64,000 nt of DNA from Tricharina praecox (taxonomy: Eukaryota). The translations under genes were made by a program, and so were the position numbers. The notes under the pieces are model-generated. The model was not told the DNA's origin. It ran no database searches and saw only the letters and a list, made by a program, of their open reading frames with translations. Below, piece by piece: positions 1 to 63,397 of the stretch (positions within the stretch are counted from its first letter, which is position 1; the number at the start of each line of letters is the position of its first letter). Location of the stretch: NCBI RefSeq assembly GCF_024521635.1, contig NW_026250406.1, positions 930,001 to 994,000 of the forward strand, in the 5' to 3' direction.

Positions 1-1176
1 AACAAATGCTGAGAGTTTCTGCTTTCTACTTGTGAATGCCGAGAAGAGCCTGCCAGGTCTCGATGGTAGCTGGTTAGAGGACACTTGAAGGTGAATGCCC
101 TGAGTGAAGCTCATTTCAGAGGTTGGCGGCCATTTATCTTCCGTGACTGGTGAGTGTGACCAATCTTCAATGGCCAGATTCCTGATGTAGGTTTCTGCAT
201 GTGACATCTCCGGCATACCAGCGTATTTGATAAACCCGAGTAATTTCTGCGGGATGTCCACAATCAGCAGGGATCCCTCAAAGCCGACAGAGTGACAGTA
301 ACTTACCATCCAAGAATCAACCGCATTCAAGGAAGTCCAACAGGTTTTCTTAGCACCTGAGCTACTCCTGAAGGTCACCCTCACCATATCCGACGGGCTG
401 ATCGTACGGAGCGGCTCTGGGTTTTCTGGCACTGTCTCCTCACTGATGCCTTTCGAAGTCGACGTTGTCAGGAGGTCCTCGCTCTGGGTGCTACCAGATA
501 AGTTCGTTGTACGGATCGAGCCTCTCCTCGCCCAGGACATGACGAATCCTCCGGCGCGTCTATAGCCTCTCGAGCGCAGCCTACTGGAGCTGCCGCGGGC
601 GGGGGAATCATCGATTTCAATCCGCTCCTTCTCTTTGCCTTTCGTTTTCGCCCGTTTGTCGTCCCTGAGCGCGCATGCCGCGATTATTGTGGAGAGCAAG
701 CCATGGGGGTTGTGTTTTTCGGCAGCAGCAGCGGCTGACGATTGCGGTGGTGACAATCCGATCAGGCTTGGTGGGCCGCCGGTTACCATTTTGCCAGCAT
801 CTTCTGTGAGTTCGCGGACGCAAAGGTGGAACTCTGAGGCCGTGTGTCGAGGTTTCGGACTGGGAGGAGGAGGAGTAGTAGCCGCGGACGAAGGAGGCGG
901 CTCTTCGATGGTTGGGATCTCAGTGGCTGTGGTAGACGGGTCTGATCTCTGCTGCTCAACAATTTGGATCGAACTCATTTGAGTCGAACTCCTGCGGGTT
1001 TGGGGATCGGTTTGCTCCCGGTTGTAAATGGTGACTGTTCCGACGATGTCTCTCAGCGAGTCTTCAATGCTGTATGAAGAGGAAGAACCGATCGACCTGA
1101 TGGATGTTGCAGCATGAACGCTCGCTGAGAATAGACACTCCGAAGAGGCAGACGGTGGGATAAGGCATGTCGACAT
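1..1176 (-). CDS. Hypothetical Ser/Thr/Pro-rich protein, 3' end truncated by the window edge; exon 1176-307, intron 306-247, exon 246-<1
   Basis: Minus-strand frame open from ATG at 1176 (MSTCLIPPSASSECLFS..., second Met at 978) to position 1 with no stop, which is why it is absent from the ORF track. It contains a 60-nt intron with GTAAGT donor, GCTGAT branch site and CAG acceptor. No recognisable domain, and the start codon is uncertain. Confidence 0.6.
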   Translation of the reverse strand, partial: MSTCLIPPSASSECLFSASVHAATSIRSIGSSSSYSIEDSLRDIVGTVTIYNREQTDPQTRRSSTQMSSIQIVEQQRSDPSTTATEIPTIEEPPPSSAATTPPPPSPKPRHTASEFHLCVRELTEDAGKMVTGGPPSLIGLSPPQSSAAAAAEKHNPHGLLSTIIAACALRDDKRAKTKGKEKERIEIDDSPARGSSSRLRSRGYRRAGGFVMSWARRGSIRTTNLSGSTQSEDLLTTSTSKGISEETVPENPEPLRTISPSDMVRVTFRSSSGAKKTCWTSLNAVDSWMVSYCHSVGFEGSLLIVDIPQKLLGFIKYAGMPEMSHAETYIRNLAIEDWSHSPVTEDKWPPTSEMSFTQGIHLQVSSNQLPSRPGRLFSAFTSRKQKLSAFV

Positions 1177-4100
1177 TCTCGACACGGGACAGTAAACGCC
1201 AAAAAGAACACCGGTTGTGAGGATGTGGGTGAGTGGTGAGGAGGAGCTGCGAAGAGTTAGAGGGGCAATGGATGATCACTCGGTAACAGTGGGTCTACTG
1301 ACTAGTGCCTTCTCAACTTGGCCATTTGCAGGAACCTCACTATTCCAGCCATGATCTACCTGTTGTAATATCTCACTCGTTGCTTGGTCGCTTACGCGGT
1401 GATGACGGCACGAAGCACTGGCCGCCTACCACCCCTTTTTTCTGTCTTCTCTCGAGGCTTTCAGACTCTCTCAACACAATACTGTAAACAAGAAACAAAA
1501 CGAACCTCACTACCACCTATCGATATTTTCTTCCATCTTCGCCTCACTCCGCAAACATACGGGAGCTCTCGGGCAACCGTCCTACTGTCTACACACTCCA
1601 CAATTTCATATCCCGTTTGTTTAGCACGAAGAAGCAACATCTCAAGTGCAGAAGACTTTGCCGTTGACGGTTGAACATGACCCAGAACATTCGACCAAGT
1701 TCCAAGTTCCAACAATGTCAAGCGCCCACTTTGAACTCTTTGCACTCTTTTCCGCTCCGGTACCTAATAACTATGGCCATTGGCCAATCGTATATGTACT
1801 AAGATGGTATGTATGTACACCATCCGAAGCAAGCAAAGAAGAGCTCCCCCCAACGATTCAAGTCCCCGGTCCCAGTCTCAGTCTCAGTCTCAGTCCCAGT
1901 CCCCAGTCTCAGGCAGCAGCAAGTTGCAACAGTCATGCGGGTCCTCTCAGTCTGGAACTCTGGAGGGAAGTGTTTCGTCACGTCTGCTGTCTGCAGCCAG
2001 TTAGTCAGTTAGACGAGCTCGGAGCGAGCAGCATCGTCGATCGCGAAAACAAACGACCACCCAGCTACATACATTAACATACAACAGGAATTCTCGGTTC
2101 CGGCCATGCCCCCTTCCCCCTCCCCCCCTCTCGTCACGGTTGGTTGGGCTTATTCTCAGGCAACAGTTGCCGAGCTCGACTTCTTTTTCTTCTCGAGAGA
2201 GAGGGATAGTGTGTGGGGTTTTGCATCATTGCATGCAGAAGCAACTAAGACGGACGGGTGTAAGGCGGGTGACTGTTCACACGAACCAGGCGTCCGCCCG
2301 CTTCTGTGGACGAGCTGTGGGTCTAGACCGCTCGGAGGTCCGCTTGTTGGTGTATCCCCTATCCCCACAGAGGAGAAGAGAGTTTCACGGTGTCGAAGGA
2401 AGGACAAAAAAACAACGTGGTGGTGTAAAAGTTCAACATTTACCAGGGTGGGTATCAGGTACACTGCAGCGTTGTAAACGCAAACATTACGCACGCTGGA
2501 GCCTGGGGTGGGGGGAAGCTGTGGTCCGGGCTGGCATCCCCAGCTCGCAGCCCGCAGCCAAAAGGATGTGAAATGCCCTCCGTCCAACCAGGATCACGGC
2601 CATGGCGGATGGATGGATGGATGGATGGATGGATGGACGGAGCAGGACGGAGCAGGACCCGCCGTGCGTGCGTGCACAGTGCACACTGTACATATCATAC
2701 GTATCATACGTATCATACGTTGTGGTTCGCCAGCAAAGCAAAGTAAAGCAAAAGCCGCGGCAAACATCGATGACTGACTGGGCTTTGTTCCATGTGTTCG
2801 GATAGCAACATCTGCGTAACAGGCCAGCTCCCTAGCTTCAGGTACGGTGTACCTAGGCAGTCGTCTACCGTATTCTCTGAGCTGGTTGAATCCGCCAAGA
2901 ATGGGCGGAAGGTCGAGTGATCCTCCCCTTCCCTCGAGCCCTTGGCCACCTCCTGAATCTTCCTCCTCTTCCCGTACACTGTACACAAAAGGGCTGCAAC
3001 GGTCCGCGCTGCAGTGGCAGAACTCAAAAGTCCTGGATCTTCCGGTGCTCCTGGGAGGACATGCTTGGGAGGGGTGTGGAGGGTGGTACACCAGAGGGCA
3101 AATTGCGTGCAGGATTATGCAGGTAACCGATTCCTACGCGTACGTTATCAGATTATGAACGAGGCCAACATGTTAGGTATGTATGTAGGAGGGGAGGAGA
3201 ACTTAGAAGACGATAACAGTTCAGCTCCCAGAACACTCAGCTGGACCTTTGCGACGTCGCACTCGCACTCTCAAAGCAGCCGCCGCCGCAATTGGCGGTG
3301 GTGGTGGTGGTGACCTTCCAGAGGTATGTAACAGATATACATATGAGCGGCGGCGGTAGTGTCGGACGTTATATTTATGCCTGGTACAACATGATCAGGC
3401 GGCATCATTTCGCGTATCTGCATCGATAGTGGTGCTATATTACATACCGTATGTACACGTTTTCCTCGACGGAGTACCGTACGGCGTACATACCGGTAGT
3501 ATGTATGCCCCAAAAATATATTGTGCACATCCATCCGCTAGGGCAATATCCGTAAGTCCGTTCAGATAGTCAACTCCTACGATCATCGGTGTTGCCCGTT
3601 CGAGGTTCGTACTTCGTTTCTTTGCTGTGGGATCCGCCAAACGGATGGGTTGATCATTGATGTTCGTAGCGGCATCTATGGTACCGTAAGTACCTACTCC
3701 GTCTCTGGCCGTGGCAAAATCATGTTGACCTCTCCTCTCCTCTCCTGAACACCTGCACCCACCCCCTCCCTCGACGGAGGGGGCTTGCAATTGCTCAGTA
3801 CTCACGGATGGCACGGATGTTAAAGCCCCAACGTCGATGCGGATACCTGCCTACTTACTTACCCACAGCTAGTGAACCGCCAAGTACTGAGGGGAACACA
3901 CGGCAACGTGACCGGGTGGTGTCGAGGCAGACCTTGGTGATGGGCTCGGTCACAGTTCGGTTTCCCCCTTTCAGTGGCAGACCTCAGGAGCTGAGCTGTT
4001 TCAATTCAACAAAGGGGGACACCCGACGACGACATCTGCCGTGCTCAGACGGCCGGCCAGCTACGGTACATACATACGCTCTTGCTCTAGAGTGCTGTAG

Positions 4101-24700: not shown

Positions 24701-27700
24701 ACGTGAGGGAAAAGAAGGCAGCAAAAAGATCTGTCCCCCCGACCCCCGACCCCCTTCGAGAGTCGAAACCTCGCCTGCCTTGTGTTCCGGCGGGCTTGTC
24801 CTTGCCCTATGACGGCCCCTCATATGGATAGAGCAGGTACTCGCAGCCGAGAAGAAGCCAGCCATGCTACTCTACTTCCTACCCATCGCGAGACCAATAA
24901 CTACCGGCGTACGGCCAGCCCGGTATCGCAACAACGGAAGGAAGGGAAGGGGGAGGAAGGAAAGAGTGAAGAAAGAAGGAGGAAGGAAAGTAGCAGGAAA
25001 GAAAGAAGTATGATAGGAAAGAAAGAAGCCGGAAAGAAAGAAGGAAGGGAACCGACATCCCACAAAGCCCAGGTTTAATCAAACCCCGAGCATTTCCATC
25101 ATCATCGTCGTCGTCCTCGTACGATATGTACACAACTATGCCCTGCCTTACACACATACCCCCCTTCCCCTCGGAACATATCGTCAAATGCCGGCATCTT
25201 GTCCGTAGTAAACTAGTGCCAATGATTGGCAGTTCAAATCAACCGCGGACTGTGCTTTGGATCTGCGACAACTGACATCGACGAGAGACATCTGCATACA
25301 TAGTTTTACTTATCGATTATGTACGCACAGACACGGGGCTAGGAGGTGAGGTAAAGTGAGGTAAAGTGAGGTAGAGGGTTGTCACATTTCGCGCGCGCAC
25401 ACCACATGAGGCGACAACGACAACGCCGACGCCGACGCCAACGCCGCCACGAACACGATGTGGGATACGCGAGGGTAAGGAGTGGATACAGGTACCGTAT
25501 CCGGATCGCCGTCGAGGCGAGCAGGAGAGGCGAGCAGGAGAGGCGGGGCGGACAGACAGCAGAGTAAATGACGGAGAGGGCGGACAGCAGAGCAACGGAC
25601 GAAGAGGGCGGACGGACAGACAGGACGAGAAAAGACCAGCAAATTTCAATGTCGTGTGCGGGGAGCCGACGTGATGTACGTGATGTTAACGTTCGTTCAT
25701 GCAAACGAATTATTGGATAGGGAGAGAGAGAGTTCTTTCCGGCCGTACCTGGGCCTGGGATGTCCGTGCTTTTCATAGGTCGTATCGTGTCCCCGAAACC
25801 CCTCTCTCTCCCCTCCCCGCGGTGTCTCGCCCCTCCTCCCCCCCGCCGCTTGGCCGAGCAAGACCAGATGGGAAGAAGTTTGGATAGCAGCTTATGATGA
25901 TGTTACCCAGCAGTAGCGTTTTGGAGAGTACAGTAGTGCCTGGTGAGTTGCAGGAGATAGGTAGACTGCCAGCTGCACGTCCTCTGAAAGGCTGCAAGGC
26001 TGCGTCATTCATCATGTAGAGTAGCGTACGTGCCCTGCCGCCGCTTGCTTGCCCTGCCTCCGTCGAAAAAAAAGGAAACAGCTATGGAGTATGTAATAAT
26101 AGAAGCATCATAGGTCCTAAGGTAGAGATGCAGAACATCTATGTACCTGGGCAAGCAGGAAGCTATGCTTCCACCTATCCTCCAAGCGTAGGAAGGAAGC
26201 ATGGCAATTCTGACATGTGGAGTGTTACCCGTTGTGGCGGACGATTCTCCAACTCTGCTGGAGCCCGAAGGCCTAGGTAGAGTAGCTCGAGCTCGAGCAG
26301 GTACCCGTGAGGACTGCGTGTTGGCTTGGATTGGGTGCGCCGAAGGGGACCAGATGATCCGCTCTCTGAAGGGAACGGGCATCGGTATTGCTGTCACAGC
26401 TTGATAACTCGCGCTGCCTGGTGTTCAAGCTGTTGTGATAGCCAAGGCAGCTTTACCTCACGTTGACGGAGATTCGAAAGACGCAGGTCCTGTTTTTTTT
26501 TGTTGATGTTTCGCGCAGGTTATGTACGACACGACTGGCCAACACTCCATTTCGAAGGGGTAATGATGGAGGTGAAATGATTCAAATGACTGTACCTATC
26601 GTCTCATTCTGTCCGCCTTCTCCGAAGTCCAAGAATTCGGGAGTCTGCCTCGATCCGGAGTTGGGCGCACTGTTGGTCGCTTGCTGTGTCGTATGCGCCT
26701 GCAAATTCGAGGTGGGGTGTGCACGATGTGGGGAAACAACCTGATCCTGATCCGACGTAGTTATAGTATGGGGATTTCGCGACGTCGACATTTACAGAGT
26801 GGGACAGGAGAGTTGGACAGCCTGCCGTGGAGAATGGTGGGACGCCGAGGGCGAGGACCCGATCGGTTTGATTTCATCGCGCGAACAAGAAATATTTAGA
26901 GCATTTCCGTGGGATCCGACCGACATCGCTCAGCTCTCCCTCTTCCGCTCTCAGCTCTGCGTCTTGGCCCCGGAGGTGTCGAGGCCCGTGTCCAGTCTTT
27001 GTCCCGGAACAGAGGACCGCGAAACGAACGACATGAAACGGAGTGACAAGAGGGAGCGGGAACGAACTGACCATAGTGCCAGCCCAAACACGGCATCATC
27101 TTGCGCTACCAGCGCAGAAAAATGCTTGGATCAGAGGGTTTAGTGCCTTTCGTTTCGCTGCTGGGGTGGCGTCGCGCGGCGACTAACGAATTGAGTCGCA
27201 GGTTTGAGGCAGGCAAGCAAGTAACTACGGGAGGTAGGCACATGTCGTCGTCGAGATTGGGGAGGGGATAGAGGATAGGGCGACAGATGAGTGGATCCGC
27301 AATGCTGGACGCAACGGAATGACTTGGACATGTCTCGAGTCCCGACTCCGCGCCGTTCGTTCGTCTGTTTCTTTCATTCGTCCGTCCGTCCATCCGCTTA
27401 AGGGGTGAGGGGGAGCAGTCAAGAGCGACGGGGATCCCGGCCGGCACGGCCATGGCCGCTGCCTTGATGGGACACGGAACCGACTGCTGGCCGCCGGGGC
27501 CACACACGGACGGAGCAGCCAGCCAGAGTGCCTCAGGGTTGTGCTCTGCCCAGACGGCTCGGACGGTCGAAGTTCTCCTTACAGAAATGCTTTCTTCTTC
27601 TGCTTCTTCTTCTTCGTCTTCCTCAGCCAGCCCCACAACCACCACCACACAAATGAGTGCGCAGAATCTGCAAGGGTGCACGATGAAGCTGTTCACGCCG

Positions 27701-28225
27701 TCCACCGACCGTCCCCTCTCTCCGTGTGTCTTTGTCTGTGTGTGTGTGTGTGTGTGTGTGTCTCGCTCTCCTCGCGCGCGCGCCAGCTCCTGGCCGTGAG
27801 CAAGTTAACCGTATCGCGAGCATGCTGTACATGCGCAAGTAGTCAGCCAGTCAGTCAGTCCGTCCTCGAGACGTACGAAGGTCGCTGCATGTACGTACTT
27901 GTGCCTGGTGGGCACGCAAGCATCTGGGCCTGTAGGTCGAGCAACTCTAGGGTTCGTGAGCGTAGTGTGTGGGTGGGTGTGTGGGTGAGCACCTCGCACA
28001 ATGATGGTGGTTGGGCTAGGTGGTCCCTCCAAGTGACCCGGGACCTTCGACTGTCCTTTCAGTCACAGCGGTTCCGTGAACCACGCTAGCCACCCCTGCG
28101 AACCAAGTTCCGCGACAATCTCATCACCACCTACACCACCACCACTACCCCCCCTCCCATCCAGACCCCGGCTCACCACCGAAAGGCTGTACGAGAGACA
28201 GGTCTCCGTTTAGCTTCGCCCGTCC

Positions 28226-28234
28226 ATATATATT
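28226..28234 (+). promoter_or_regulatory. TATA-like box upstream of the microprotein gene
   Basis: ATATATATT, followed by an A/C-rich, ATG-free stretch of about 340 nt that ends at CAAAAATG (28578). Confidence 0.55.
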
Positions 28235-28577
28235 ACTCACGAACTCCCCCCTCCTCAAACATAAATACCAACCCATTGAACCTTCCAGTGAAAGGCGTCT
28301 CCATCATCCAGCACACGAACAACACGATAACTTCACGCATCCAACCCGAAAGCACAATCACCCACCCACAACTGCCAGTCGAACTTCACCTACAAAACCA
28401 TCATCAGCACCCATTCGCACGAACACCAGCAGTAGCAACATCTCCAGAAAGCCCAAAGCACAAGGCAGAAAGCAAAAACACCTTCAGCAGCTCCACCCAG
28501 CGACTGTCCATCCGCAACAGCCAGCAGTCAACCTGCCCAGCTCCATCCGGAACGAACAACCAACAACCACTCCAAAA

Positions 28578-28840
28578 ATGTACTCTTGTGTAAACCAGCC
28601 ACGAGGATGCCGCGGACGAGTAAACATTCCCGGAGGTCGTTGCGACAGTTGTCGGGTACGTTTGTCTTTGGTTTCCGTCCATCTGTGGAGGTGGGGAGAG
28701 GACGTCAGTCTAACAGCGTGTGCGTTCTCCAGCAACTCAACCTGCGGAAATCAGTCTTCGCGCTCGGCAGTCCCGTAGCCTACAGGCGGCCATCGATAGA
28801 CTTCTCGTCACTTGCCATTTCCGCGCAGGACCCCCGATAG
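28578..28840 (+). CDS. 61-aa cysteine-motif microprotein (C-x6-C-x10-C-x2-C), function unknown; exon 1 28578-28655, intron 28656-28732, exon 2 28733-28840
   Basis: Spliced translation MYSCVNQPRGCRGRVNIPGGRCDSCR/QLNLRKSVFALGSPVAYRRPSIDFSSLAISAQDPR*. Canonical 77-nt intron with GTACGT donor, CTAAC branch site at 28710-28714 and CAG acceptor. Good start context (AAAATG, A at -3), upstream TATA, and microsatellite-free local sequence. Confidence 0.8.
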
Positions 28841-31800
28841 AGCTGCGCCTGCCCTAGCAATCCCCGACACACCAGCGGTCAAGCGAGTGGTCTCTCGCTT
28901 CATCCGCCGCCCTACTCCCCTCGATCATCTCCCCCGCCTTCCTCTCTCGCTCATGGCGATCGACAAAATCGGCAAACGACCAATAAAACCACCACAGCTC
29001 GTTCGATCCACTCCGCACACCCGTCCGCCCTCCGCCCAAAAGGATATCCGTTTCATTTCTCCCGTGTGTTTATATCTGAATATTTCCTTTTTCCCCCTCT
29101 TATTCGGGTATGGGCCATTTGCGGGATAACGGGTGTTTGGGTTTCTGTCATTGTATTTCCTTTTCCTGGGGGTTTTCGGGGTTTATGGGCTCGGTGTCCT
29201 GTTGAGTATTTTTGCATTTTCTGGAGAGCGATCCGCATCCGCAGTGGACGCCCGCTGGGTCCCCGCCTGTATTGCTTTGCTTGCCTCGGTTCGGGTTGGT
29301 GTTCAAGTCATTTTCGGCGTTACGTCATGCTTGCTTCTTAACCCATCCCCCCGGCTCGTCTCTCCCCCCTACCCGCCCGCTGTCTCCGTCTCTCGAAACA
29401 TCATCATCATCATCATTTTTCCCGACTCTTCGGTCCACGACAAGGGAGCCCTTCCTCCTCGTCAGACGCCCAGCTACTTCATGTAGTCCGTCACCACTAC
29501 TGCCGTTGCACCGTCGCTGGCGTCCTTTCTTATCCTTACCTGCGACGAGACGCCAGCTTTTGCCGGTCCGGTTGGGCATCACGAAGAGCTGCGATTGGTC
29601 TGAATGCAATGGCGCCGGCCGGGGGACGAGGGAGAGGGAGGGGTAACCCACCCACCACCACCACCACGCAACACCACACCAGCGCAATCAACCCCCCGAA
29701 TCGCATCGAATGGGCAGCCCCAAAATCTCACGATATCTACCCCCCACTACAAAAAAAATCGAGCCCCCCCCCAATTCCAATACGGCAGTTCGAATACGAC
29801 CTATCGCATCGTCTGTCGCATGCAGGCTCATTTCACAGTACCTGTCCTCCACCGCACACCTCGGCAATAATATTGCTCTCGCGTCGTCGGTCGCCCGGCC
29901 TCGCCCTTCGAAGATGGACCCATGCATCGCTTGCCGGAACAGCGATTGCATTACCTCATCCGCCTGCATTGCCTATCGGTGCATTGTCGGTTTCTAGCCC
30001 GGACGTCTGCTGAGCCGAATTCGAGCAAAGGCTACTGCTGCGTACGTGATACCGGATGGAGTGAGTCTCGCGGAGATCGAGGGAGAGAGTGGGGAAGGAA
30101 TGAAGGGGTGGGGCTGGGAAGCAGAATGAGGGGTTGCGATCCTGCGTGCCTGCACCGCTTGCTGCGTCTCGCTCCTGCCTACTGTCGGCACCGTCGTCGT
30201 CGCCATCCGATCGTGTGGCCATCAGCTCCGACTACCTCCACGATTGCGGGGGAGAGGGGGGGGGGTGGACTGTGTCTCATGATTGCTGTGTTGTCGCTGT
30301 TCGTTCATTCATTCGTTCGGCCAGGGTGGCTTTATCATCTATCTCTTCAATCTGTATGTACTTTGGGCGGAATTGGTTTTCTCCTTAGTGAGAGCGGACG
30401 ACACCAATCCCACAGGCTTTCAGGATCTTATTCATTATCATTGTTATCATTTTTCCTTCCTTTCCTAACGCGGGGTTTCAACGGGGTTCTTTCTCTTTTT
30501 ATTTCCTCAATAGTCATGTGTACCATCATACATCTAGATACCGGAGCGGCGTTGCAATCATCATCATCTTGGGAGGCGGAAGGCGGGGGCGGGTTTGTTT
30601 TTGTTTTTTTATTTTTTCTGGCTTTTCTGTTTTTCTGCGTTTTGTTTTTCCTCATTTTTTTATCTGGAGCACTGGGTGGGTTTTTCGTTTTTTTTTTACG
30701 TTTTGGGGATTTTTTTTTTCCACTATTATTTTTTTACGATTGCGAATGAACGAACGAGAAGAACAAGAACAAGAACAAATGATAATAATCACTATTACTC
30801 CTCTTAATTCGTGTTCACTCTACATACTCTATTCTATTCGAAAGGCGCAGGGTGCATTCATTTCATCTTCATCGCTGGCGGATGATGGACGGCGGCGGGC
30901 CAGGCCAGGCGCAATTCACTTTCGTCGTCGACTCCCGTTGGCGTTGCAAACAGAAAGCAAACGTTCTGTGAAACCAAGAATTGAGCCAAGGAGAGGAGGA
31001 GGAAGGAGGAGAAGGAGCAGGAGGAGGGTGAATAGGAGAGGAGGAGGAATGCGTGCGTCTACCTAGCGGTGCAGGCAGGCAGGCAAGGAGGGGAGAAGTT
31101 CGCACGATCGTGGTTTGGGGAAACAGGGAGGAGCTGGAGGAGGAGCACTCTCGGAGGAGGAGGAGCGAGAGGGAAATTGTTCTTTCCCATCCAGCAGCCA
31201 CCACCACTTGGTCTGGTCCACATACCGCACTCTACGATTGCCAGTGCGGGAACAGTCCGGGCATCGCCGTCCGGGGGGGAGGGGGGGTAGGCTGCACGAA
31301 GCCGCGGGTTTTTTTTCTCTCTCTTCCTTTTCTTTCCTTGCTCGATCGACCGACTCGACTCTGAGTGAGTGACCAGTCGCTTTTTCCGTCCTTTTTTCCG
31401 CTTTTTCCATTTTCCCGGCTTTTTTGTTATTTTTTATTTCACACTTGTGATTTATTTTTATTTCTCGCTCCAGGCGATTACGAGAAAAGTGCACTTTTTT
31501 ACTTCTCCTCTTCCAGCTTCAGCTCCAGAGTCCAACTCCTCGTTCTCTTCTAGGTACTCTAGAGTATCGACGCCCAACGCCTCCCCCTTCCCCTTCCCGG
31601 TGCTGCGGCGGTGCACTCGATGCAGATTCCTGGGACTTCCAGCGACGGCGGAAAGGACGACGGAAAGGACTGGACTGCGATGGGAAACGGACGCCGGACG
31701 GGGCCAAGGATATGGCGCTGGCTCAGTGGCCGCGGCGCTTTTGGTGGCTTTCGACTTGAGAGCGAGCGAGCGTTGCCATTGCCGTTGCGGCCGCGACGAT

Positions 31801-44786: not shown

Positions 44787-47292
44787 TCAAAACGCCAGTT
44801 TCCTCTGCCCCTTCTCCAGCTTCTTCGGGTCCTTCCTGCCCCTCTTCCCTTTCCCACCAGCACCAGCACCAGCACCAGCACCAGCACCGCCGCTGCTGCT
44901 GCTGCCACTGGCCTTTCCCTTAGGCACCGGCGGCGCAACCTGCGTCACTCGTTCCCTAGCGGTTGCAGCTCGGTCTTCGAGCATCAGGCTGCGCGCGAAA
45001 TGCCAGTCTTTGTGTTCGTCCTCGTCGCCGGCGGGAATCTCCGCGCCGCAGTCCGGACATCGGAATGTAGGCTGTGCATCCGCGGCGGTGGCCTCGAGTG
45101 CTTGTGCATGCCCACCACCGCCGCCGCCATCCTCGTGCACCGGTGCCGGCGCAGCAAAAAACCGTCCCGCAATATCGACCTTCCTCCGCTTTTCCTCTGT
45201 AGGCAGCCTTTCCGCCGCGCCCTCGCCGAGTCGTTTATTCGCCTCCCTCGCCTTATCGCCCTTGATCAGAAACGCGCCAATACCCCTATTCCCCTCCTCG
45301 CGATCCTGAATCCCGGCGACCTGCAGACTCAATCCGGTGCACGGCCAAACACCGGGTTCACCAGCAACCTGTCGCAACAGGCCCTCCGCCAGCCTCGCCA
45401 GCATCTCCGCTCCGATCTTCCCCGCGGGCGGGATGGAGACCTGCTTGTTCCGCGACCCCGAGTGCTTGTTCGTGAACGATATGGTCATGGTCTTGGGTCG
45501 TCGCCGGCCATCCATCACCCCCTCGTCCTCGAGCCGTGAGCAAATGTCGGCGATAAACACTTTTATCCATAGTTGGGCCGCGGCGATCGACGATGGCAAA
45601 GGGTCCCGGAAGGATTTGGCTGATAGCATGGATTTGATACCTGATTTGGGCTCCACGGCGGAGCGGTCGTGGCCCCGGATAGTGTTGTATACCCAGGTGG
45701 CGGTGTCGTCGGAGAGAAGGCTCTGGAAGGAGGCGAGTGAGACGGAGAGGAGCTCTGTGAGCGATTCGGTCTTGAAGTGCTCGGCGATCTGTGTGCCGAG
45801 TTTGCCGCCGAGATTGCGGACTGTAGGTGGTGCCGGTCCGTCAGTTGCTAAGAGGGGAATCGGTGGTGTGCCGACTTACTCTTCGTGAACTTGAATGTGG
45901 CCAGAAACGGTTCAACCGCGGATGGGCGTACTACGCTCTGCTCGCCATTCACCACATCAGCTCAGCTCGGGCTTCTTGCTCGCAACTCGTAACTCATGCC
46001 CGTCTACATACTTGTTGATTCGGCTTCTTGAACCCCGCCCCCAGTTTCGCAATCATCTTATTCCCCGCCACGCCCGCAGAACACGTATACCCCAGCTGCG
46101 TGAACACCTCATCCCTGAGGCCCCTCGTGATCTCCGCCCCAATCGCCATAGCAACATCATCCCAATCCACCTCCTCCATGAGCATCTCCCTCGTCTCTTC
46201 ATCCTCCCCCACATTCGTGACTAGATGACTCTCACTCCAGTTCAGCACCACCCCTTTCGGCGGTGCCGGCAGGAGCGCGGCATAATCGCCGTCCGGCGGC
46301 GCCCCCCGCAGCACGGGATACCGCAGCAGCAGCTGGTCGTGGATGTCGCGCGACAGGTCGAGAAACGATTCATCGATGGACGCGCGCTCGGTCCGCGCGT
46401 TCGGGCACACGGATTGGAAGATCGACAGGATCTTTTTGGACTCGGCACGGTACGGGTCGAGGCACGCTTTGCTGGTCGCCATGTCCGGCTCGCTGGATCC
46501 GTCGCCGTAGGACCAGGTGGTCTTGCCGGCTTTCCACGTTGCTACCTGGGGCGGGATGCATCGTCAGAAGTGTGTAAAGGCAAAGGGTGCAAGACGCAGC
46601 TTGGAATCGGGTGCTTACGTGCACGAGCTGGATGTCCGGACATAGTTTCCGCGCCTCGGCCGAGGTGATCTGTCGTGACTTCATCAGCCTTCATCGCTCT
46701 TTCACCCTCACCCTCCCTCCCTCCCTCCCTCCCTCCCGAATCCTCGACGACCTACATGTCTCGAAACGCCCTTCTCCCTGCTCGGGTAGTTGACCGCAAT
46801 AAGGTCTGTAGACATCCCGCGCGTAAGCCAAGTACCTACGTAGACCTACAAAAACACCCCATGATCCACGCACTCTGCCATTGCTGCACAGCGAGCGGCT
46901 GCTCGGGCGACACGCCTAGCCGTTTCATTTCACATTGCGCCTTGCACCCATATCCTATCAGCGTCGAGTCGAGCCGTGGTGGGCCGTGATGGCAGAACGG
47001 AACGGGACGCACGTACGTAGAAAGCATCGAGATCCCTATATGTAGCAGCGTTCGGATTCTAGGTATCAATCACCGCCCTCTCACTAGGTATCTCTCTCCC
47101 TCGTTCTAGGCAGGCAATAAAACAAGGAACTCACACAAGCGCGACAACGCGAAACGGCGAGTCGACGGAGTACCGCGCGAGCTGCTGCAGGTGGCGGTAG
47201 TTAAACTTTGATCTTCCCTGTGCGTCTTCGGCTTCGACTACTGTTGTTGCTGTTGCTGTTGTTACTGTTGCTGTTGCTGTCGGTGGCGACAT
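44787..47292 (-). CDS. RAD30: DNA polymerase eta (Y-family translesion polymerase), about 656 aa, 8 exons: 47292-47135, 47035-47017, 46940-46874, 46805-46756, 46669-46619, 46545-46012, 45937-45880, 45820-44787
   Basis: Spliced product has SKFNYRHL..SPFRVVALVDLDAFYAQCE, PLAVQQWQNLIAVNY, ACLDPYRAES, ERASIDESFLD, YTCSAGVAGNKMIAKLGAGFKKPNQQ and RNLGGKLG, a UBZ finger (CPDC..HKDWH) and a C-terminal PIP-like KGQRKLAF. All 7 introns are GT-AG, and exon lengths sum to 1971 nt, in frame. Confidence 0.95.
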
Positions 47293-50200: not shown

Positions 50201-50951
50201 ACCCCCATCTAGTTACGCGTGGCGTTGTCAGCGCCGTCCGTCGTTGCTGTCGTCACGATCTGGGATTGATCTCTCTTGCCCGTAGTGCGTCTTACTTGGA
50301 GATTCGACTCCGTTGGGCTTGGGCCAGCAAAGACGCACTTGCAATTAGGGAATTAGCAACCCACTACCTTCCCTCCACCACCACCGCTACCTCCCACTAC
50401 CTTCCCGCTACACCACCATACCCACCAAACCCTCGCGTCAGATACCTAGGCCTCCTCCTCCTCTCCTCCTCCTCCTTTCCCACTCCCTCCGACCTCCGAC
50501 TCTCCGACTCCCGCCGCCGTTCCCCGCCAATACTCAAACATCTCGACGTTTCCGCCTGGGCTCAGCGGGACGATTCGTCGCTTCAACAGCATCCTCTCTC
50601 ACGCTTCGTTTTTCATCTACTACTTGTCTCGTTATTGTAATACACACCAGTTGCCTTGTCCGACTACTCCATTGGAATCCCTTCTCTTTCTCTCTCGGGA
50701 GTAACGAGGGACGAGAGCAGCAGTACAGAGTTTATCTCGGGGCCGCGCGCTATCGGATCTCTCACGAAACACCACACCAACATACCGTCATTTAATCACC
50801 CTTTCTTTTTTCTTCTTGAATTTCTCAGTCGCCCGCGGTGTTCTTTACGACTTCAGTTTTGTTTTCGGCTGGGGTCTAATCGCTCGCTCCACATCGCCAA
50901 TAGGTTCTTTTAACATTCATTTTTAACGACACAAATCCTCCCGGCACCTCC

Positions 50952-53900
50952 ATGCCGCCGCCTGCAGACATGGACGATCCTTTTACGACCCCAAGGATGG
51001 TGCGCGAATCCACACCACTAGACCTCTCCCCGCCGATTCTCACCCGCCCCACCACTTCCCCAGAACAGCTCAAGCGCACGTTACAGGCACATCTTGCCGA
51101 GACGCGGAAACGGAAGGATGGCGCCGAACGACTAGGCGAGGATCTGGTAAAGCAGGAGGAGGAGATCGAAGCGCGATTAAGGGAGCTGGAGGCGAGCGGC
51201 GGCAAGATCGACCCAGAACTTAAGAGGAAACTGGCCGAGCTTGAGAAAGAGTACAATGAGGTCGGACGTGAGACGTCGAGAGCCTTGTTGACGAACAAGA
51301 TCATGAGCACGGGTAGTGCGTCGCCGCTGAATAGATCTAATGTGGGTACTTCGATCGATGGATACGGAATGGGCGTCGGTGATGCGGCATGTGGGTTTGG
51401 AAAGGAGTGGATGGCTGATGAGAAATAGCATAATTCGAACCCCTCGACCCTACAGTCTCAGGGGGCTGCGTCGCCATCCAAACCATCGCGACGACAACGG
51501 AATCAGGCTCCTTCGCGAACACATGATCTCGAGTTCGCGGCCGAACTGGGCCAAGGTCTTATCGCCGAGGTGCGCAAACTGCAGGCTCTTCTGTCCGAAC
51601 GGGAGGAGGCGCTCAAGATTGTGCAACTGGAGAAATCGAGGCTGGAGGAACATGCAGAGTCGATCGAAGCCAGGCTGAGGTCGCTAGACGAGAGCGAGCA
51701 ACGGTTCAAGGAGGAAAACTGGAACCTTGAGCTCATGATCCAGGATCTCCGATCGCAACAAGCCGAACAGAAGGAGGTCGAGACCCGCATGCAAGTCAAC
51801 ATCGCACAGCTCGAACATGAAAAGACAATGGTCATCAAAGAGCTGGACGATATGAAGCACCAGTTTGCGCGGATCAGCGACGATCTCGAGACAAGGACCA
51901 AGCACACCGAGACGGAAATCGGGTCGCTGCGCAGGGCTTTGGCTACACACGAAACCGAGAAAACCGGACTGCGGAGCAAGGTCGAGGAGCTCAAGGCGGA
52001 ACTGGAGGAGAGTTACAAGACCACCATGCGCCTACGGAGTTTGCAGGAACGACAGGAGGCCGACGACAGGGACGACCCATTCGGCATCGACGCTCCGGAT
52101 GACGATAATGAAGATGGTTCTCCTCCCCCGTCGCCGACAAAGCACACTCCACGACACGGACAACTGGAAGCCGAAACCCTAAAATCCAGTCTCCACCATG
52201 CCCATAGAATGATCCAGAACCTGCGATCGAATATGCACCGCGAGAAGACCGAAAAGAATGAACTCAAGCGGATGCTACAGGAGACCAGGGACGAACTAGA
52301 GTCCGCACGCAGTGGCTTTTCCAGTCCACCACAAAAGGAAAAGAGGCGTCGGCCGGATGGCACGTTCAAGAAGCTGCCACGGAGCAGTATCAACCTGCTG
52401 GGAATCGCTAGGAAGAGCCGCGATGAAATCGTCACCGAGTCGCCAATCGCAAGGCACGATGACGACTGGGAAGAGGCAGATCTGGACGACGAGGATGCTC
52501 GCTTCGGGAAAACCCCTGGCGCGTACATCTCGAGTGTTCCTCCCACTGATGTTGAGGGCGACTCTTCGTTTGAGACGGCCAATGAAAAGGATAGCAGCGA
52601 CGTTTTCGACACTGCCACAGAAAACGAAGCCTACCTCAATAGGGGCGAGAGCCCTGTCTACGACGATCCCACATCCGGCGATGAGCTGACCGAGACCGAG
52701 GGAACACCTTCCCGATCTTTGAAACCAAAGGCTTCCCACCTCTCGTCGCGAAGCTTGCGACCATTGCGTCTGACCAAGCTGCGCCATCAACGAAGCAGCA
52801 TTGTGTCTACTGCATCTACCGAAGATGAGGACGACCAATATGACGATTCTTTCTACCGCTACCAGCAGGAGCAGGAGGATATGTATTCCCCCGACGCCGA
52901 GTACGACGAAGAAGTCCTGAAGACACCATCGCACGTCAATAATCCTAGGATGAAGCTGCGTCTCAACAGGGCCCGAGGCAAAACAACCCAAAGGATCACT
53001 TCTTCTGACAGCAGCATGTTCAATTCCAACGTCTTTGGCAACATCGGTTCCAGCCCTGCTTCTGGACTCGGAAGCCCTGCGTCTTTCAACGATTCTCCTC
53101 GCGGCTTCAATTTCCGCACTTCCGCCGTCCCGCACGGACTTCACAAGAGTCTATTTGCCGAGCTTGGTAACAACAGCCCTGGCATGATGTCTGCGGACGG
53201 AGACGAGTATGGAGAGAGGAATACGCCCGGCAGGTTGCTGTCGCCCTCCCTGATGCCTCGTGAGATGGTTGAAATGGTGGATTCCGGCGTCATGACGGAA
53301 GAACCTTACCCAGAGATTCCGATTCTACTTGACGATTCCGCAAGTGACGCTGCAAGCGATCGTCCCTCAACCGCCGTCACCGTTGTCAATGACTCTGGTA
53401 TGCTGGGTGTGGGATCCTTCGACCGCAAGCCAACTCTGGAAACTTTCAGAGAGTTGCCGCCACTCCCTGTCATGTACGATGTAGGAGTTCAGAGTGAGGA
53501 GGAAGTCAAGCCATCTATCGCCGAGACTGGAGTGCAGTCCGATGCGCCGTCAACTACTGAATACGGCACACAGTCCGATGAGATTGTTCTGCCGGAGACT
53601 TTGGAGATCGGTACACAATCCGACACGGCATCAACTACAGAGTTCGGTACCCAATCCGAGCCGCCGTCGACTGCAGAGTCCGGTAATCAGTCTGAGCCAC
53701 CGTCGACTTCGGAATTTGGCATGCAATCAGACGAAGTCCCCGTGCCGGAAACTTCGGAATTCGGTACACAGTCGGACGAGATTATCCTACCGGAAACCTT
53801 GGAGATTGGCGTGCAGTCTGACGAGATTCTCGTACCGGCGACCATTGAGTTCGGTACACAATCCGACGCGGAGCCCGTCCTGATGACATCAGAGTCCGGA

Positions 53901-56649
53901 ACCCAGTTCGATCCCGAGCTAGAGAAGTCCGAAGAGGAGGAACGGGAAACCGTATTCGTACCCATCGTCGCGCCGATCCCTCTCCCGAGCAAGGATGTGT
54001 CCGATAGGGGAACGCAGTTCGATCCGGAACCCGAGGAGGAAGCTAAGGTTCTCCCTATGCTGGAATTATCGCCGGTTTTCATACTCGTGGAGACGCTGCC
54101 TGTGGAGGAACCCCTGCCCGAACCAGTCATCATCATGGTACCTCGGGAAGAGGAGAAGAAGGTTGATCAGATCTTGGCCTTGGTCAAGGGGCCGTCTATC
54201 GATACTACACCGGTCGAGGAGGTTGCTCCAGAGTTTGTCCTGGTAAAGGGAGAGTCTGTGGATATTGCGCCCGTGGAGGAGGTTGCCCAGGAATTTGCCC
54301 TGGTCAAGGGAGACTTCGTGGAGACCGTTCCTGTGGACGAGGTTCCACCGACCTTTGTCCTGGTGAAAGGAGATTCCGTGGATGTTGCGCCCGTGGAGGA
54401 GGCCACTCAAACCTTTGTTATGGTACAAGGCGATTCTATCGAGATTGCGCCTGTGGAGGAGCCCATGCAGAAATTTGCTCTGGTACAGGGAGGCTCACTA
54501 GAGACGGTGCCTGTAGAGGAACCGCTGCCGGAGCCAGTTATCATCATGGTGCCTCGAAAAGAGGAGCCGAAGGAGATCCAAACCTTTACCTTGGTGAAGG
54601 GGGAATCTCTGGATACTGCGCCTATCGAGGAGCCTGTTGTGGAAAAACCGGCCCTTGTGCTCGATTTCTCCAAGATCATGGCGGTGTCAACCGAACCTAT
54701 CAGTCCTGTTCGCGAAACTGCACCACCAATAACAGCGATGCCTATTATCACAACTGTCGATACATCGTTTTCTTCGGACGAGGTTACGCCAAAGAAGGTA
54801 TCCGAGACTACCGACGGGGACTCGTCGCCGTCGCCGCCGCCTAGGTCAACTACGCCAACTTCTAACATCGGGCGTGGAGGCCTAGGGTTTTTCAGCTCGT
54901 TGTTCGGCCCGCGCAAACTGCCAGTTACACCCGAACGTGCCGAGCGCGCCGCATCACCTAGCGCAAAGAGCTTTTCTATGGAATCAGACGATGAGTATGG
55001 TATGGAAGAGGGCACGGTCCGACAGAAGAACACCCCCCGCCGGCCCGCGCTCAACATGTCTGTATCGACAGCTGATCAAGGCATCCAAACCGAACTTTCG
55101 CCGGATGCTTTCATCAATATCGTGAAAGAACCGCCGCAGGTGCAGACACCTAGGAAAATTCTTTTCGGTAGCACGTCAGAGCGAGCCTCGGTCAGGGAAG
55201 TGGCGCCCACTCCAAGTCTGCGATCGCTGGCATCCACGGAGAGCATCGCACTGCCTCTGCCTAACAGGCTGAACGGTGAAGTTGGTGGTGTTCGGATTGT
55301 TTCAGCGTCGTCGTCGGTGATTCGCCCAGACAGCTCATCGAGTATGCGCGAACAGCGAATGGGGTTCCCCCCGCTGCCAGAACACCATCAGGAACACATC
55401 GCTGCAGCCCAACAGAAGATGGGGTCGTCAGCCGACCACTCGATGGCCCCTCCACCAGTACCAACACAGAGGGCCAACGTGTCTTTCCGACCACGCACAC
55501 CTGGTCAATCGGACCAATCACGTCGACCAATAACACCGGCGTCAACGTCGCATGCAGGCACCACACCAAAGCAATCGGCGAAATATTCTGCTACAAGAAG
55601 CGAGATTTCCTCACCAGAGTCGCGTCGCTCATCGCTTTCATCGTTCGTAACCGAAATGGACGATCGCTTCAACATTCAGAACGATGGATATCCCGCCCGG
55701 GGTGCCGGCAGCGAGTCACCATCCACCGATCCCAGAGTCATTCAGGCTATCACTCAGACGATGATTGGCGAATACCTATGGAAGTACACGCGCAACACCG
55801 GACGAGGCACAATATCGCACACCCGCCACAAGAGATTCTTCTGGATCCATCCGTATACTAGGACGTTGTACTGGAGCGACCGGGATCCACAGTCAGCGGG
55901 TCGAGCAGAGCTGCGCGCGAAGAGTGTTGCCATTGAGGCTGTCAGGGTCGTGACGGACGATAACCCAATGCCCCCCGGACTGCATAGGAAGAGTCTGGTC
56001 ATCATCACCCCCGGTCGCACGCTCAAGTTCACAGCACCTACCAGCCAACGGCACGAGACGTGGTTCAGTGCGCTGTCGTACCTGTTGCTTCGTGACGGAC
56101 AAGATGGAGCTATCGACGACACTGCGGCTCTCAACGACGATGATATGCGGGACTACAACCCTCAAGGTGGATACAGCACCGAGAGCTCGCTGCGACCTAC
56201 CGTGCGTGGCGCTGCTTCATATTCGTCATTCCGGTCGCGCGTGACTCGGGAACCATCACCCACACGGAACGCATCTTCGCTGTCGAACCGACGACCTACC
56301 GAACGGGAGCGCATGCAGGGGAGTTTATCGCGATTGAGTAATATCTTCCGACCAGCGTCTGCTTTTGGCAGCCATAGCTCGAGGAACGACAATAGCGTGT
56401 ACGGTATCAGCGAGGATGATAATTCGACGGAAGATCTTCAGCAGATGGAGCGTCAGGAAGTTGAGTTGGAACGGATGGAGAATGTTAGGGCGTGCTGCGA
56501 TGGTTTGTTACTCCCATCACCGATTGTGATTCAATATTCTAACATGTGCATTAGGCAAACATGATGTCGGAACACTCCCCCGGAAAGGCGGAAAGGCTGG
56601 CGTCTTCCGACGAGGACAGGCCCACAACCACTCGCACTCGCACGGTTAA
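50952..56649 (+). CDS. apsA: Nuclear migration protein / dynein cortical anchor ApsA/Num1, about 1852 aa; exons 50952-51341, 51429-56502, 56555-56649
   Basis: N-terminal coiled coil with SRRQRNQ..RTHDLEFA, LEAETLKSSLHHAHRMIQNL, a C-terminal PH domain (IQAITQTMIGEYLWKYTR...RFFWIHPYTRTLYWS...FTAPTSQRHETWFSALSYL) and, after splicing, the terminal motif MENVRACCDG/KHDVGTL. Confidence 0.93.
53470..54640 (+). repeat. Coding tandem repeats within ApsA/Num1: about 12 (E/D)xG(T/V)Q(S/F)(D/E) units, then about 7 20-aa LVKGxSxDxxPVEE units
   Basis: Visible in the translation, and as a period of about 60 nt in the DNA (TGGT.AAGGG...GTGGAGGA) from about 54175 to 54540. Confidence 0.85.
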
Positions 56650-58322
56650 GCTTGCATCGTGTCATCGAGTGATTTTTTTTGTTTAATTTTTCCTTTTTTC
56701 CTTTTTGGGTTTTGGTAGTGGGGGGGTTTTACTGAACGGGTCATTTTCTCTATCCTTTCCGCAACACTTTTTTCTTTTCGTTCTGTGTGCGCATCTGTGT
56801 AGGCTATACACATTTGCATTTTCCTTTTGTATGAAACTGGGTTGGGTTGTCTGTCTGCAAGAGTGTGTGAGCGAAGGAGTCTTGGGAATGCTGACAATAC
56901 TTGCTACTACAGCGAGGAGCCTCAATGGAAAGGTAGGAAAGGAAAGAAAGGGTGCAGAGAGTCGATACGATACGCTTGGGGGGGGAAGATTGTGGGATTG
57001 GATTGGATTGGATTGGCTTGGATTGGGAAAGCGGAGCTTTATGGTGTTTTAATCTCATTCACCAATCACTTGATTGGGTTGATTCCGAAGCACGGCGTTT
57101 TGTTTTGTCAACTTTCTATAGTTTTTGTTTTTTTTGCACCCTGTACAACTTTTCTTCTCCAGAGACTGACTGACTGGACTTGCCATATTTCTTTTTCCTT
57201 TTCGGTATTTTTCCTTTGTCATTGTTTGAGTCGAGTCTGTACTCCTACTGTCTTGTGGATTTTGGAGGAGGAGGACGGGGGGATACATCGGAGGAGCCGG
57301 AAGAGAAAGGAGAGGACAGACTGGGAGAGCTGTGTGTATTTTACGCCATTATGACCAGAAATCAACTTTCCCATCTCGTGATACATCTTCTTGTCTTTCC
57401 CACAGCTATCTTTTGCTAAGTTATTATATATTCTGCTACATACTATGGACATACACGAATCCCATCAGACATATAGCTCTCCATTTGTTTCTATTCATCA
57501 TCGACCACCTGCAGCTCTTCCACGGTCGCATCCCCGCCCTCCCACCGAGACAGGAGGTTTGGTCGGGGAGTATAGCAAGCACGGAGAGAGCCGCCGGGTC
57601 GATGGAGAAGTCGTATTTGGCTTTTGGAATGGTCATCATCTGGGGGTATATTTCACATCCATACTTCTCCTCTCCCACTTCCACCACCAACCACCACCAA
57701 CCGTCCCCCCGATCCCGACCCGGACCCGACCCGGACCCGACCCGAGGACTAGATCCGATTGAAAACTATATATTTGCTTTCCCATCATCGACTGCTTCTT
57801 GCTCGCTCGCTGGGAGGAGGAGGTGCTGGTCTAGGAGTGCGGAGTTTTGTCGTCATTTCTGCGGAAAGGGATGAGGGGGGGGGGGGGGGCGAGGGACGAC
57901 GGCGGCGGCGGCGGAGATAGGAAGCGGAAGCGGAAGAGGAATCGACCTCTACGATTTCTGTTCGGTGTCATCCATGCCTCGAGCCCTCGTGGAAGAGGGG
58001 AAGCGGTGTGGGCTCTCTTTTGTCGTCATCAAGGTCTGTTCGTTTTAGTGGGAGTTGATCGAAAATGGAGGGGGAACGGGGGGCGAACCGTGGTGGATGT
58101 TGTGTGAAGAAGGAAAGAGGGAGGGAGAGGGGGCGCGGTAATATGGTACGCGTACGCCGGGTAACTACGTGTCTCTAATTCAGAAAATAGAGTGCGCCCC
58201 ACGCTAGTCTGACTAGCTTCAGCTGCTACCCATGCAGCTGTCGCAAAAAAAGTTCGAATTGAGTCCTTCGTCCACTCTCCTTTTCCCCATTCTCCACGCA
58301 ACCAGCAAGCAACACACGAACG

Positions 58323-61966: not shown

Positions 61967-63397
<1,431 letters not shown>

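Follow-up and report, generated by a model that had tools for sequence, protein, structure and literature searches.

A two-exon gene encoding a 61-residue protein with four cysteines lies at 28578-28840 of a 64,000-nucleotide (nt) stretch of the Tricharina praecox genome (contig NW_026250406.1 of assembly GCF_024521635.1, positions 930,001 to 994,000 of the forward strand). This whole stretch, hereafter the window, is about 55% G+C and reads as filamentous-ascomycete DNA; all coordinates are counted from its first letter. On comparative data together with splice evidence, the gene is almost certainly a real, translated and constrained protein-coding gene. It belongs to an unnamed family of Pezizomycotina proteins and is already annotated in relatives; the present data establish how it is conserved, how the gene is built and the evidence for its RNA.

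An initial annotation, made from the letters of the window and a list of its open reading frames (ORFs), had proposed a hidden spliced microprotein gene occupying 28226-28840. Its TATA element, ATG-free leader, AAAATG start context (ATG at 28578-28580), exon and intron coordinates and the two unspliced ORFs of the window's ORF list (28578..28778 and 28586..28840) are all present as described, to the base. The gene is indeed hidden in the ORF list but not in relatives, where at least 27 named NCBI genomes have an annotated orthologue. The proposed extent does not hold: the transcript spans about 28290-30700 and includes a 3' untranslated region (UTR) of about 1.9 kilobases (kb) which had been overlooked. 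The gene is made up of the following elements (L011 and L012 are related metagenome loci, X1 and X2 are public sequencing runs, both introduced below):

28227-28234, + strand: TATA element TATATATT, read directly from the sequence, about 55-65 nt 5' of the contig starts
28254..28270, + strand: 17-nt block with ATAAATA, the same in the window, L011 and L012, about 25-30 nt 5' of the contig starts
28290..28577, + strand: 5' leader of about 290 nt, 75% A+C, no ATG; its length is weakly hinted at by contig starts
28578..28655, + strand: coding exon 1, 26 codons, with the invariant Cys4, Arg/Gly-rich core
28656..28732, + strand: intron, 77 nt, phase 0, skipped in contigs of runs X1 and X2
28733..28840, + strand: coding exon 2, 35 codons and TAG (28838-28840), defined by its translated sequence and family motifs
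28841..30700, + strand: 3' UTR of about 1.86 kb, defined by the X1 contig; end coordinate approximate
29315..29343, + strand: 29-nt block, the longest 3' UTR block identical in three relatives
29885..29909, + strand: 25-nt block, the second-longest identical 3' UTR block

The intron begins with GTACGT, has CTAAC 23 nt before its 3' end and terminates in CAG. The exon-1 cysteines are residues 4, 11, 22 and 25 of the spliced product. Exon 2 opens the conserved QLNLRK segment and carries an RRPSIDF motif and a C-terminal Arg. The promoter-proximal stretch 28226-28289 is 87% identical to L011 and 69% to L012; the ATAAATA block at 28254..28270 is a putative alternative TATA-like element with a predicted role in the promoter.

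Splicing was seen in assembled contigs of public sequencing runs. Contigs of four runs (X1-X4), out of six runs with matches, were aligned to the window; such contigs show neither ends, strand nor level, and contig depth is a poor measure of expression. One contig in X1 and one in X2, belonging to two studies and carrying two different organism labels, join 28654/5 to 28732/3 and skip 77 nt bordered by GT..AG, which is the junction expected by the initial annotation (28655 joined to 28733). The X1 contig (2328 nt) equals 28293-28654 followed by 28732-30697 with no mismatching letter, and the contigs of X2, X3 and X4 fall inside its span. The orientation of the GT..AG borders and the ORF mean that transcription proceeds along the plus strand. 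Contig starts at 28293 (X1, X2) and 28286 (X4) weakly hint at a leader of about 290 nt and not of the 340 nt first suggested, its freedom from ATG being upheld. Depth falls beyond about 30700 in both X1 and X2, and a transcript of about 2.3 kb spanning from about 28290 to about 30700 is a supported hint from these contigs; none of them has a poly(A) end, and the 3' end near 30700 is approximate. The word depth of the spliced contigs was 1613 (X1) and 2439 (X2) vs 13.6 and 50.9, respectively, for the adjoining contigs at 27000-27866, a supported hint at RNA abundance. Two soil metatranscriptome runs of a third study contain 99+% identical pieces corresponding to 28286-28603, 28374-28524, 28776-28972, 29474-29620 and 30402-30561. 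Since these pieces cover both the leader and the distal 3' part, both are present in RNA libraries.

Some other features of the contig alignments are of a different origin. Loose ends at 28125 and 28460 come from an unrelated 5557-nt contig sharing 18 nt of low-complexity sequence, and a loose end with a T-run at 30719 was rejected as a poly(A) tail, there being a genomic T-run at this place. Contig cover is missing at 27938-28071 in X1 and X2 and in most bins in X3 and X4, which carries no evidential weight. Where the main contig stops, the alignment carries on over 30668-31200 with other, less deeply covered contigs (93 in X1, 74 in X2), which could be read-through or another transcript; purine-rich, GGAGGA-type DNA is located at 30990-31170. 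X2 has 86 contigs over 27000-31000, of which 17 are 95-99% and 15 are 90-95% identical to the window. Alleles, paralogues or errors surfacing at very high depth could account for these divergent contigs.

A likeness to uncharacterised ascomycete hypothetical proteins, mentioned in the initial annotation, proved to be real. When the unspliced 66-residue exon-1 ORF was used as the first query, all 13 candidates matched it with E from 1e-10 to 7e-5. These are 12 NCBI 'hypothetical proteins' of Pezizomycetes (60-68 amino acids, aa) and one JGI protein, and their sequences agree with the spliced model, not with read-through. A search with a 19-sequence profile then gave 33 matches at E<=0.01 among 681 candidates (best E 9e-31), all of them unnamed 'hypothetical' proteins and none with a Pfam domain. 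Going by their names, we take them to be 13 Pezizomycete records, 4 Eurotiomycete records and representatives of 10 Dothideomycete genera, the rest being 4 JGI and 2 Logan sequences; the Eurotiomycete records presumably belong to two Penicillium, Trichophyton rubrum and Blastomyces dermatitidis. Class membership was checked for four representatives, which fall into Pezizomycetes, Eurotiomycetes and Dothideomycetes. The family consists of 60-74 aa proteins in at least three classes of Pezizomycotina, e.g., those of Sphaerosporella brunnea (FN846DRAFT_699468, P0006), Trichophaea hybrida (P0007), Tuber magnatum (P0013), Morchella conica (P0016), Penicillium capsulatum (P0019) and Corynespora cassiicola (P0030). 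The window gene is a clear member, with the same core, the same Cys positions and the same length class.

Conservation was assessed in 47 distinct proteins, i.e., the database members, the proteins derived from 21 metagenome loci and the window protein. The core M-[YF]-S-C-x-N-x2-R-G-C-R-G-R-[VC]-[ND]-x5-C-x2-C starts at residue 1 in 47 of the 47, and the four cysteines, the conservation of which had been suggested as a check, are found at positions 4, 11, 22 and 25 in every one. What all members share is a stretch of about 30 residues beginning at Met1, in which four Cys, three Arg and two Gly are invariant; in the 36-sequence alignment (A3) the invariant residues are M1, S3, C4, N6, R9, G10, C11, R12, G13, R14, C22 and C25. 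The 61-aa window peptide shares 53 residues with the Sphaerosporella protein, 57 with L011, 55 with L012 and 29-35 with Eurotiomycete and Dothideomycete members. It is one residue short after RK, having RK-S vs RKPS in most Pezizomycete members. A fifth Cys replaces Val at position 15 in Dothideomycete members and in the metagenome loci L007 and L008 (P0023-P0036 are among these records). ESM Atlas places one Pezizomycete (score 0.95) and one Dothideomycete (0.93) member in the same unnamed Ascomycota cluster of 82 members, and a further unnamed cluster of 285 members has scores of 0.89-0.90; both clusters are leads only.

No paper naming the family was found by locus tags or peptide strings, with supplementary files and about 1.7 million PMC articles outside the search, and a literature word search on microproteins yielded nothing on fungi of the Pezizomycotina group. 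Fused forms were looked for among 17 longer matches: none has a Pfam domain, and no true fusion was found among the four inspected, which represent read-through, ORF calls extended upstream or dubious gene models. In some lineages the intron contains no in-frame stop, resulting in read-through ORF calls (P0041, P0052 and P0054 were examined); one NCBI read-through model is a 187-aa protein of Pyronema omphalodes. A search with the 84-aa ORF in the exon-2 frame against 1.84 billion representatives found only P0017, a 691-aa low-complexity repeat (E 4e-4), which was rejected as a chance match.

The DNA of relatives was represented by the 21 metagenome loci, 14 of them genomic and 7 cDNA-like, which have the intron site and the ATG-free leader as in the window. 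The intron immediately follows codon 26 both in the window and in all 14 genomic loci, which are Pezizomycete-type, so the intron-position check proposed earlier holds in 15 of 15 genomic copies. The introns of these loci are 60-103 nt long, bordered by GT..AG and otherwise dissimilar in sequence. Exon 1 joins the QL of exon 2 directly in six of the seven cDNA-like contigs, the remaining one (L013) being divergent. The window and 20 of the 21 loci keep an uninterrupted ORF of 60-65 aa, while in L007 (204-578) the frame extends to 124 aa owing to a lost stop or a contig error.

The suggested check for purifying selection was made on the 16 distinct exon-1 sequences. Among the 26 codons, 9, 7 and 23 sites vary at codon positions 1, 2 and 3, respectively; the mean proportion of synonymous differences (pS) is 0.73, that of nonsynonymous differences (pN) 0.08 and pN/pS 0.11. 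For codons 1-36 the ratio is 0.16. Identity to L011/L012 is 91-95% in exon 1, 84-85% in exon 2 and 51-52% in the intron. Because synonymous sites are near saturation with the peptide unchanged, both constraint on the RNA sequence of the ORF and a chance ORF are excluded. As judged from these alignments, the pattern shows that selection targets the peptide and not the RNA sequence of the ORF. With the ORF under such strong purifying selection, the transcript does not qualify as a long non-coding RNA.

The region upstream of the ORF points to the same start codon everywhere. The nearest upstream ATG in the window is 574 nt before the start. Leaders are ATG-free in all seven cDNA-like relatives (88-440 nt), at least 300 nt upstream are ATG-free in the nine genomic copies examined, window included, and position -3 is A in all copies but one, which has G. 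The window leader alone is unremarkable in this respect, as 17-18% of its shuffles are also ATG-free; the joint shuffle probability for the window and six of the seven cDNA-like leaders (L007 left out) is about 1.6e-9, independence being assumed. Since the leaders are ATG-free, a scanning ribosome would initiate at the AUG corresponding to 28578 in every lineage.

The predicted peptide, of roughly 6.7 kDa, is basic (isoelectric point, pI, 10.3; 10.2 for residues 1-32), and its maximal Kyte-Doolittle hydropathy is 0.71 over 15 residues, i.e., there is no hydrophobic leader or segment. This agrees with the absence of a signal peptide and the basic character described initially, with no dedicated predictor used. 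Neither a CaaX end nor repeated dibasic sites were found in the family sequences, and the window protein ends in ...DPR; with this hydropathy and no C-terminal CaaX it resembles neither a secreted Cys-rich peptide nor a lipopeptide pheromone. The last residue is Arg in 33 of the 47 proteins despite the variable tail preceding it. At least one copy of an R[RK]x[ST]-hydrophobic motif is present in 22 of the 47, all of them Pezizomycete records or Pezizomycete-type metagenome loci. In the window protein this is RRPSI at residue 44, the Pro of the first RKPS motif being lost. Tail motifs of the form R-[RK]-x-S-hydrophobic fit the consensus of basophilic (PKA/AGC-type) kinases.

In sum, the gene gives rise to an RNA of about 2.3 kb which, by the contig hints, starts near 28290 and sheds its 77-nt intron; the 61-codon frame opens at the first AUG, which is in a good context with A at -3. 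The mode of action that we propose is as follows. The first 30 or so residues may wrap around a single metal ion, most likely Zn(II), with Cys4, Cys11, Cys22 and Cys25 as its ligands. The resulting small and strongly basic knuckle would act in trans within the cell, where it would bind a conserved nucleic-acid or protein partner, and the variable Ser/Pro-rich remainder would be a disordered tail. In Pezizomycetes, the kinase-type motifs of the tail could switch partner binding, while the long and partly constrained 3' UTR would probably control the fate of the mRNA. An intracellular zinc-binding regulator, as envisaged in the initial annotation, would be plausible. We put the chances of the four cysteines binding a metal ion such as zinc at about even, and regard the kinase switch as a tentative and rather doubtful addition; being absent from two classes, kinase-type motifs cannot be the core mechanism of the family and would represent at most lineage-specific control. 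The whole account, i.e., a real gene with a zinc-binding Cys4 basic module, a switchable tail and control through the 3' UTR, is one towards which we lean slightly.

A number of observations weigh against this account. Translation of the 61-codon ORF is deduced from comparative sequence data, and X1 and X2 were typed as RNA by an automatic guess, their RNA origin following from the spliced contigs. Codon usage gives the ORF no support: it scores -0.165 per codon vs 0.14-0.27 for the recognisable ORFs of the window, 44% of random 61-codon windows from the surrounding gene-poor DNA score as high, and G+C at third codon positions is 0.57 vs 0.61-0.77. As for the module, no zinc-finger family matched any of 13 members in Pfam at E<=10, the profile search of PDB returned no match at E<=10, and to our knowledge the C-x6-C ... 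C-x2-C spacing differs from that of the classical zinc ribbon or knuckle. AlphaFold2 runs with 19 and 36 sequences gave no confident fold, with mean pLDDT (predicted local distance difference test) of 59.9 and 58.8 and pTM (predicted template modelling score) of 0.21 and 0.20; the module may need a metal or a partner in order to fold, or may not fold at all. All Eurotiomycete and Dothideomycete members lack the tail motif, and in total it is missing from 25 of the 47 proteins. Finally, it is unusual for a 186-nt ORF to be followed by a 3' UTR of about 1.9 kb, which would allow for a function at the RNA level. Pfam matches to EGF_laminin and NAD_synthase, each in one of the 13 members at E of about 0.02, were rejected as noise.

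The cysteines may serve something other than zinc, namely an Fe-S cluster, a Cu(I) site, a redox-active dithiol pair or, in a peptide that is exported or processed, two disulfide bonds. Such a role is unlikely in our opinion, even if C-x6-C-x10-C-x2-C fits no zinc-finger model searched, a fifth Cys occurs at position 15 in Dothideomycete members and L007/L008, conservation is N-terminal with a variable remainder, and the frequent C-terminal Arg could mark processing. Export is contradicted by the lack of a signal-peptide-like hydrophobic stretch and of CaaX ends or repeated dibasic sites, and an Arg/Gly-rich context is more typical of nucleic-acid-binding knuckles. A comparable fungal pattern is that of the Zn2Cys6 binuclear cluster (Pfam Zn_clus), C-x2-C-x6-C-x5-12-C-x2-C-x6-8-C, a DNA-binding domain whose six cysteines bind two zinc ions. 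The spacing in our family equals that from Cys2 to Cys5 of this pattern, and both are basic and fungal, but the resemblance is numerical only. Met1 and Lys/Arg32 take the places of Cys1 and Cys6, which would leave a site for one metal at most. Also in contrast to Zn2Cys6, the window family has four Cys, or five in Dothideomycetes with the additional one at a non-equivalent position, and Zn_clus was not matched at E<=10 by any of the 13 members scanned.

The 3' UTR deserves separate consideration. Identity to L011/L012 is 71-74% over 28841-30100 vs 51-52% in the intron and 45-49% in the DNA beyond 30700; the first 1.26 kb of the 3' UTR is under constraint in close relatives. Within 28841-30700, the window, L011 and L012 have nine identical blocks of 14-29 nt. 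In blastn searches the 3' UTR aligns only to L011, L012, L014 and L015, and only exon 1 aligns to more distant lineages. cDNA-like contigs of relatives extend 389-2608 nt beyond the stop. A long 3' UTR therefore seems to be a trait of the family, constrained among close relatives and unalignable at larger distances. A (CAT)6 run is located within it at 29396-29416; a (GT)n run at 27726-27790 belongs to the upstream flank and appears as CVCVCVCV in ORF translations. Pfam matched none of the window ORFs of at least 130 aa in 28841-31063, and Rfam gave no match at gathering score across the window and none at E<=1 in 28200-30800.

These data invite the view that the locus is bifunctional or acts mainly as RNA, its long 3' part working as a scaffold, as a sponge or in localisation, with a microprotein of secondary importance. 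Only 186 nt of the spliced RNA of about 2340 nt are coding, the 3' part is visibly better conserved than the intron or the DNA downstream and includes identical stretches as long as 29 nt, and the extension beyond the stop reaches 2608 nt in a relative (L001). Nevertheless, the 3' UTR aligns only among close loci while the peptide is conserved across three classes, no Rfam family was matched, and the low pN/pS shows the peptide itself to be under selection, which makes this view distinctly improbable. Drosophila Pri offers a comparison: PMC10635573 reportedly deals with such peptides of small ORFs on long, 'non-coding-looking' RNAs. The likeness consists in a conserved ORF which is tiny relative to its transcript and is missed by ORF-length filters; the window RNA differs in having one ORF and not several, and in encoding a Cys-rich peptide with a probable metal site, and no sequence relationship would be expected.

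A cis-acting role has also been considered, in which the ORF would be a conserved-peptide upstream ORF (uORF), its nascent chain stalling ribosomes and thereby controlling either an ORF further downstream or how stable its own mRNA is. Among conserved-peptide uORFs is that of the fungal arginine attenuator peptide (arg-2/CPA1). With these the window ORF shares a short, extremely conserved peptide at the first AUG of a long RNA; the long ATG-free leader and the long RNA 3' of the stop also speak for such a role. It differs in having no conserved main ORF after it, in its length of 60-74 codons and in its N-terminal conservation. All-against-all blastp of the downstream frames of the window and the 21 loci found no ORF common to the lineages; the only cross-group matches linked L006 with L010 and L016, apparently relatives at the nucleotide level, and ATG-initiated ORFs downstream of the stop vary in place and size between loci. 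The conserved part of the peptide is moreover 30-45 residues away from the stop, a pattern unlike that of known stalling peptides, and we consider the uORF explanation very improbable. A chance ORF in a non-coding RNA, suggested by codon usage indistinguishable from random windows and by the small share of the ORF in a long RNA, is extremely improbable and already refuted by the intact reading frames, the codon-position pattern, the low pN/pS, the kept intron phase and position and the homologues in three classes, unless the metagenome loci are artefacts.

The microprotein gene stands in a region of about 43 kb which is free of conventional genes as far as our tests reach, so the gene desert described initially is confirmed. 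Of 128 stop-to-stop ORFs of at least 130 aa, Pfam matched only those from 44790 rightwards, and the codon score of the 182 ORFs of at least 100 aa within 1300-44700 does not exceed 0.049 vs 0.14-0.27 for six recognisable ORFs; short or intron-rich genes would escape both tests. Recognisable genes, all identified by Pfam, are found to the right:

44790-46563, - strand: DNA polymerase eta-like gene
51429-56561: Mcp5/ApsA-type PH-domain protein
58263-61806, + strand: DNA polymerase phi
62003-63397, - strand: ferrochelatase

DNA polymerase phi is spread over two ORFs, 58263-59336 and 59566-61806, which match profile positions 1-246 and 244-765; since the profile match is split there, an intron or frame change must lie between 59336 and 59566. 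Two further ORFs have no Pfam match and high codon scores: 50904-51425 (+; 0.189) adjoins the Mcp5/ApsA-type ORF and is probably its upstream exon, and 62928-63281 (+; 0.186) overlaps ferrochelatase antisense and is probably an artefact. At the left edge, a 425-aa frame at 1-1275 (-), open to the window edge, has no Pfam match and a borderline codon score of 0.036. This frame may belong to a gene that lacks known domains, or be no gene.

In relatives, none of 118 ORFs of at least 110 aa in the 3-kb flanks of 12 loci matched Pfam at E<=1e-5 (29 of the 147 flank ORFs, those of L014 where it duplicates L012, were excluded), which fits weakly with gene-free flanks there too, 3 kb on each side. By analogy, large flanks of this kind might mark a heavily regulated developmental gene, as the initial annotation had it.

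With its near-invariant 30 residues, kept intron, first-AUG architecture, contig depth, occurrence in soil metatranscriptomes and lack of a link to any described family, the gene is a strong functional candidate. Deeply conserved microproteins are rare and usually missed or left 'hypothetical', and this one provides a worked example of a gene invisible to codon-usage and ORF-length methods. How so small a gene is controlled becomes a testable question in view of its long constrained 3' UTR and of the 43 kb of gene-poor DNA around it. We speculate, with considerable reserve, that it may be the founding example of an ancient class of fungal microproteins acting as a metal-dependent switch on a core machine. 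If this were true, a peptide of about 30 residues would have been fixed since before Pezizomycetes split from other filamentous ascomycetes, its target being, e.g., the ribosome, RNA or a basophilic-kinase pathway. Its RNA would be abundant enough in these runs to surface in bulk soil metatranscriptomes, and its expression would be governed by a long constrained 3' UTR and tens of kb of gene-free flanks. As the family spans plant-associated, soil, dermatophyte or dimorphic fungi, a function found in one species would probably transfer to the others.

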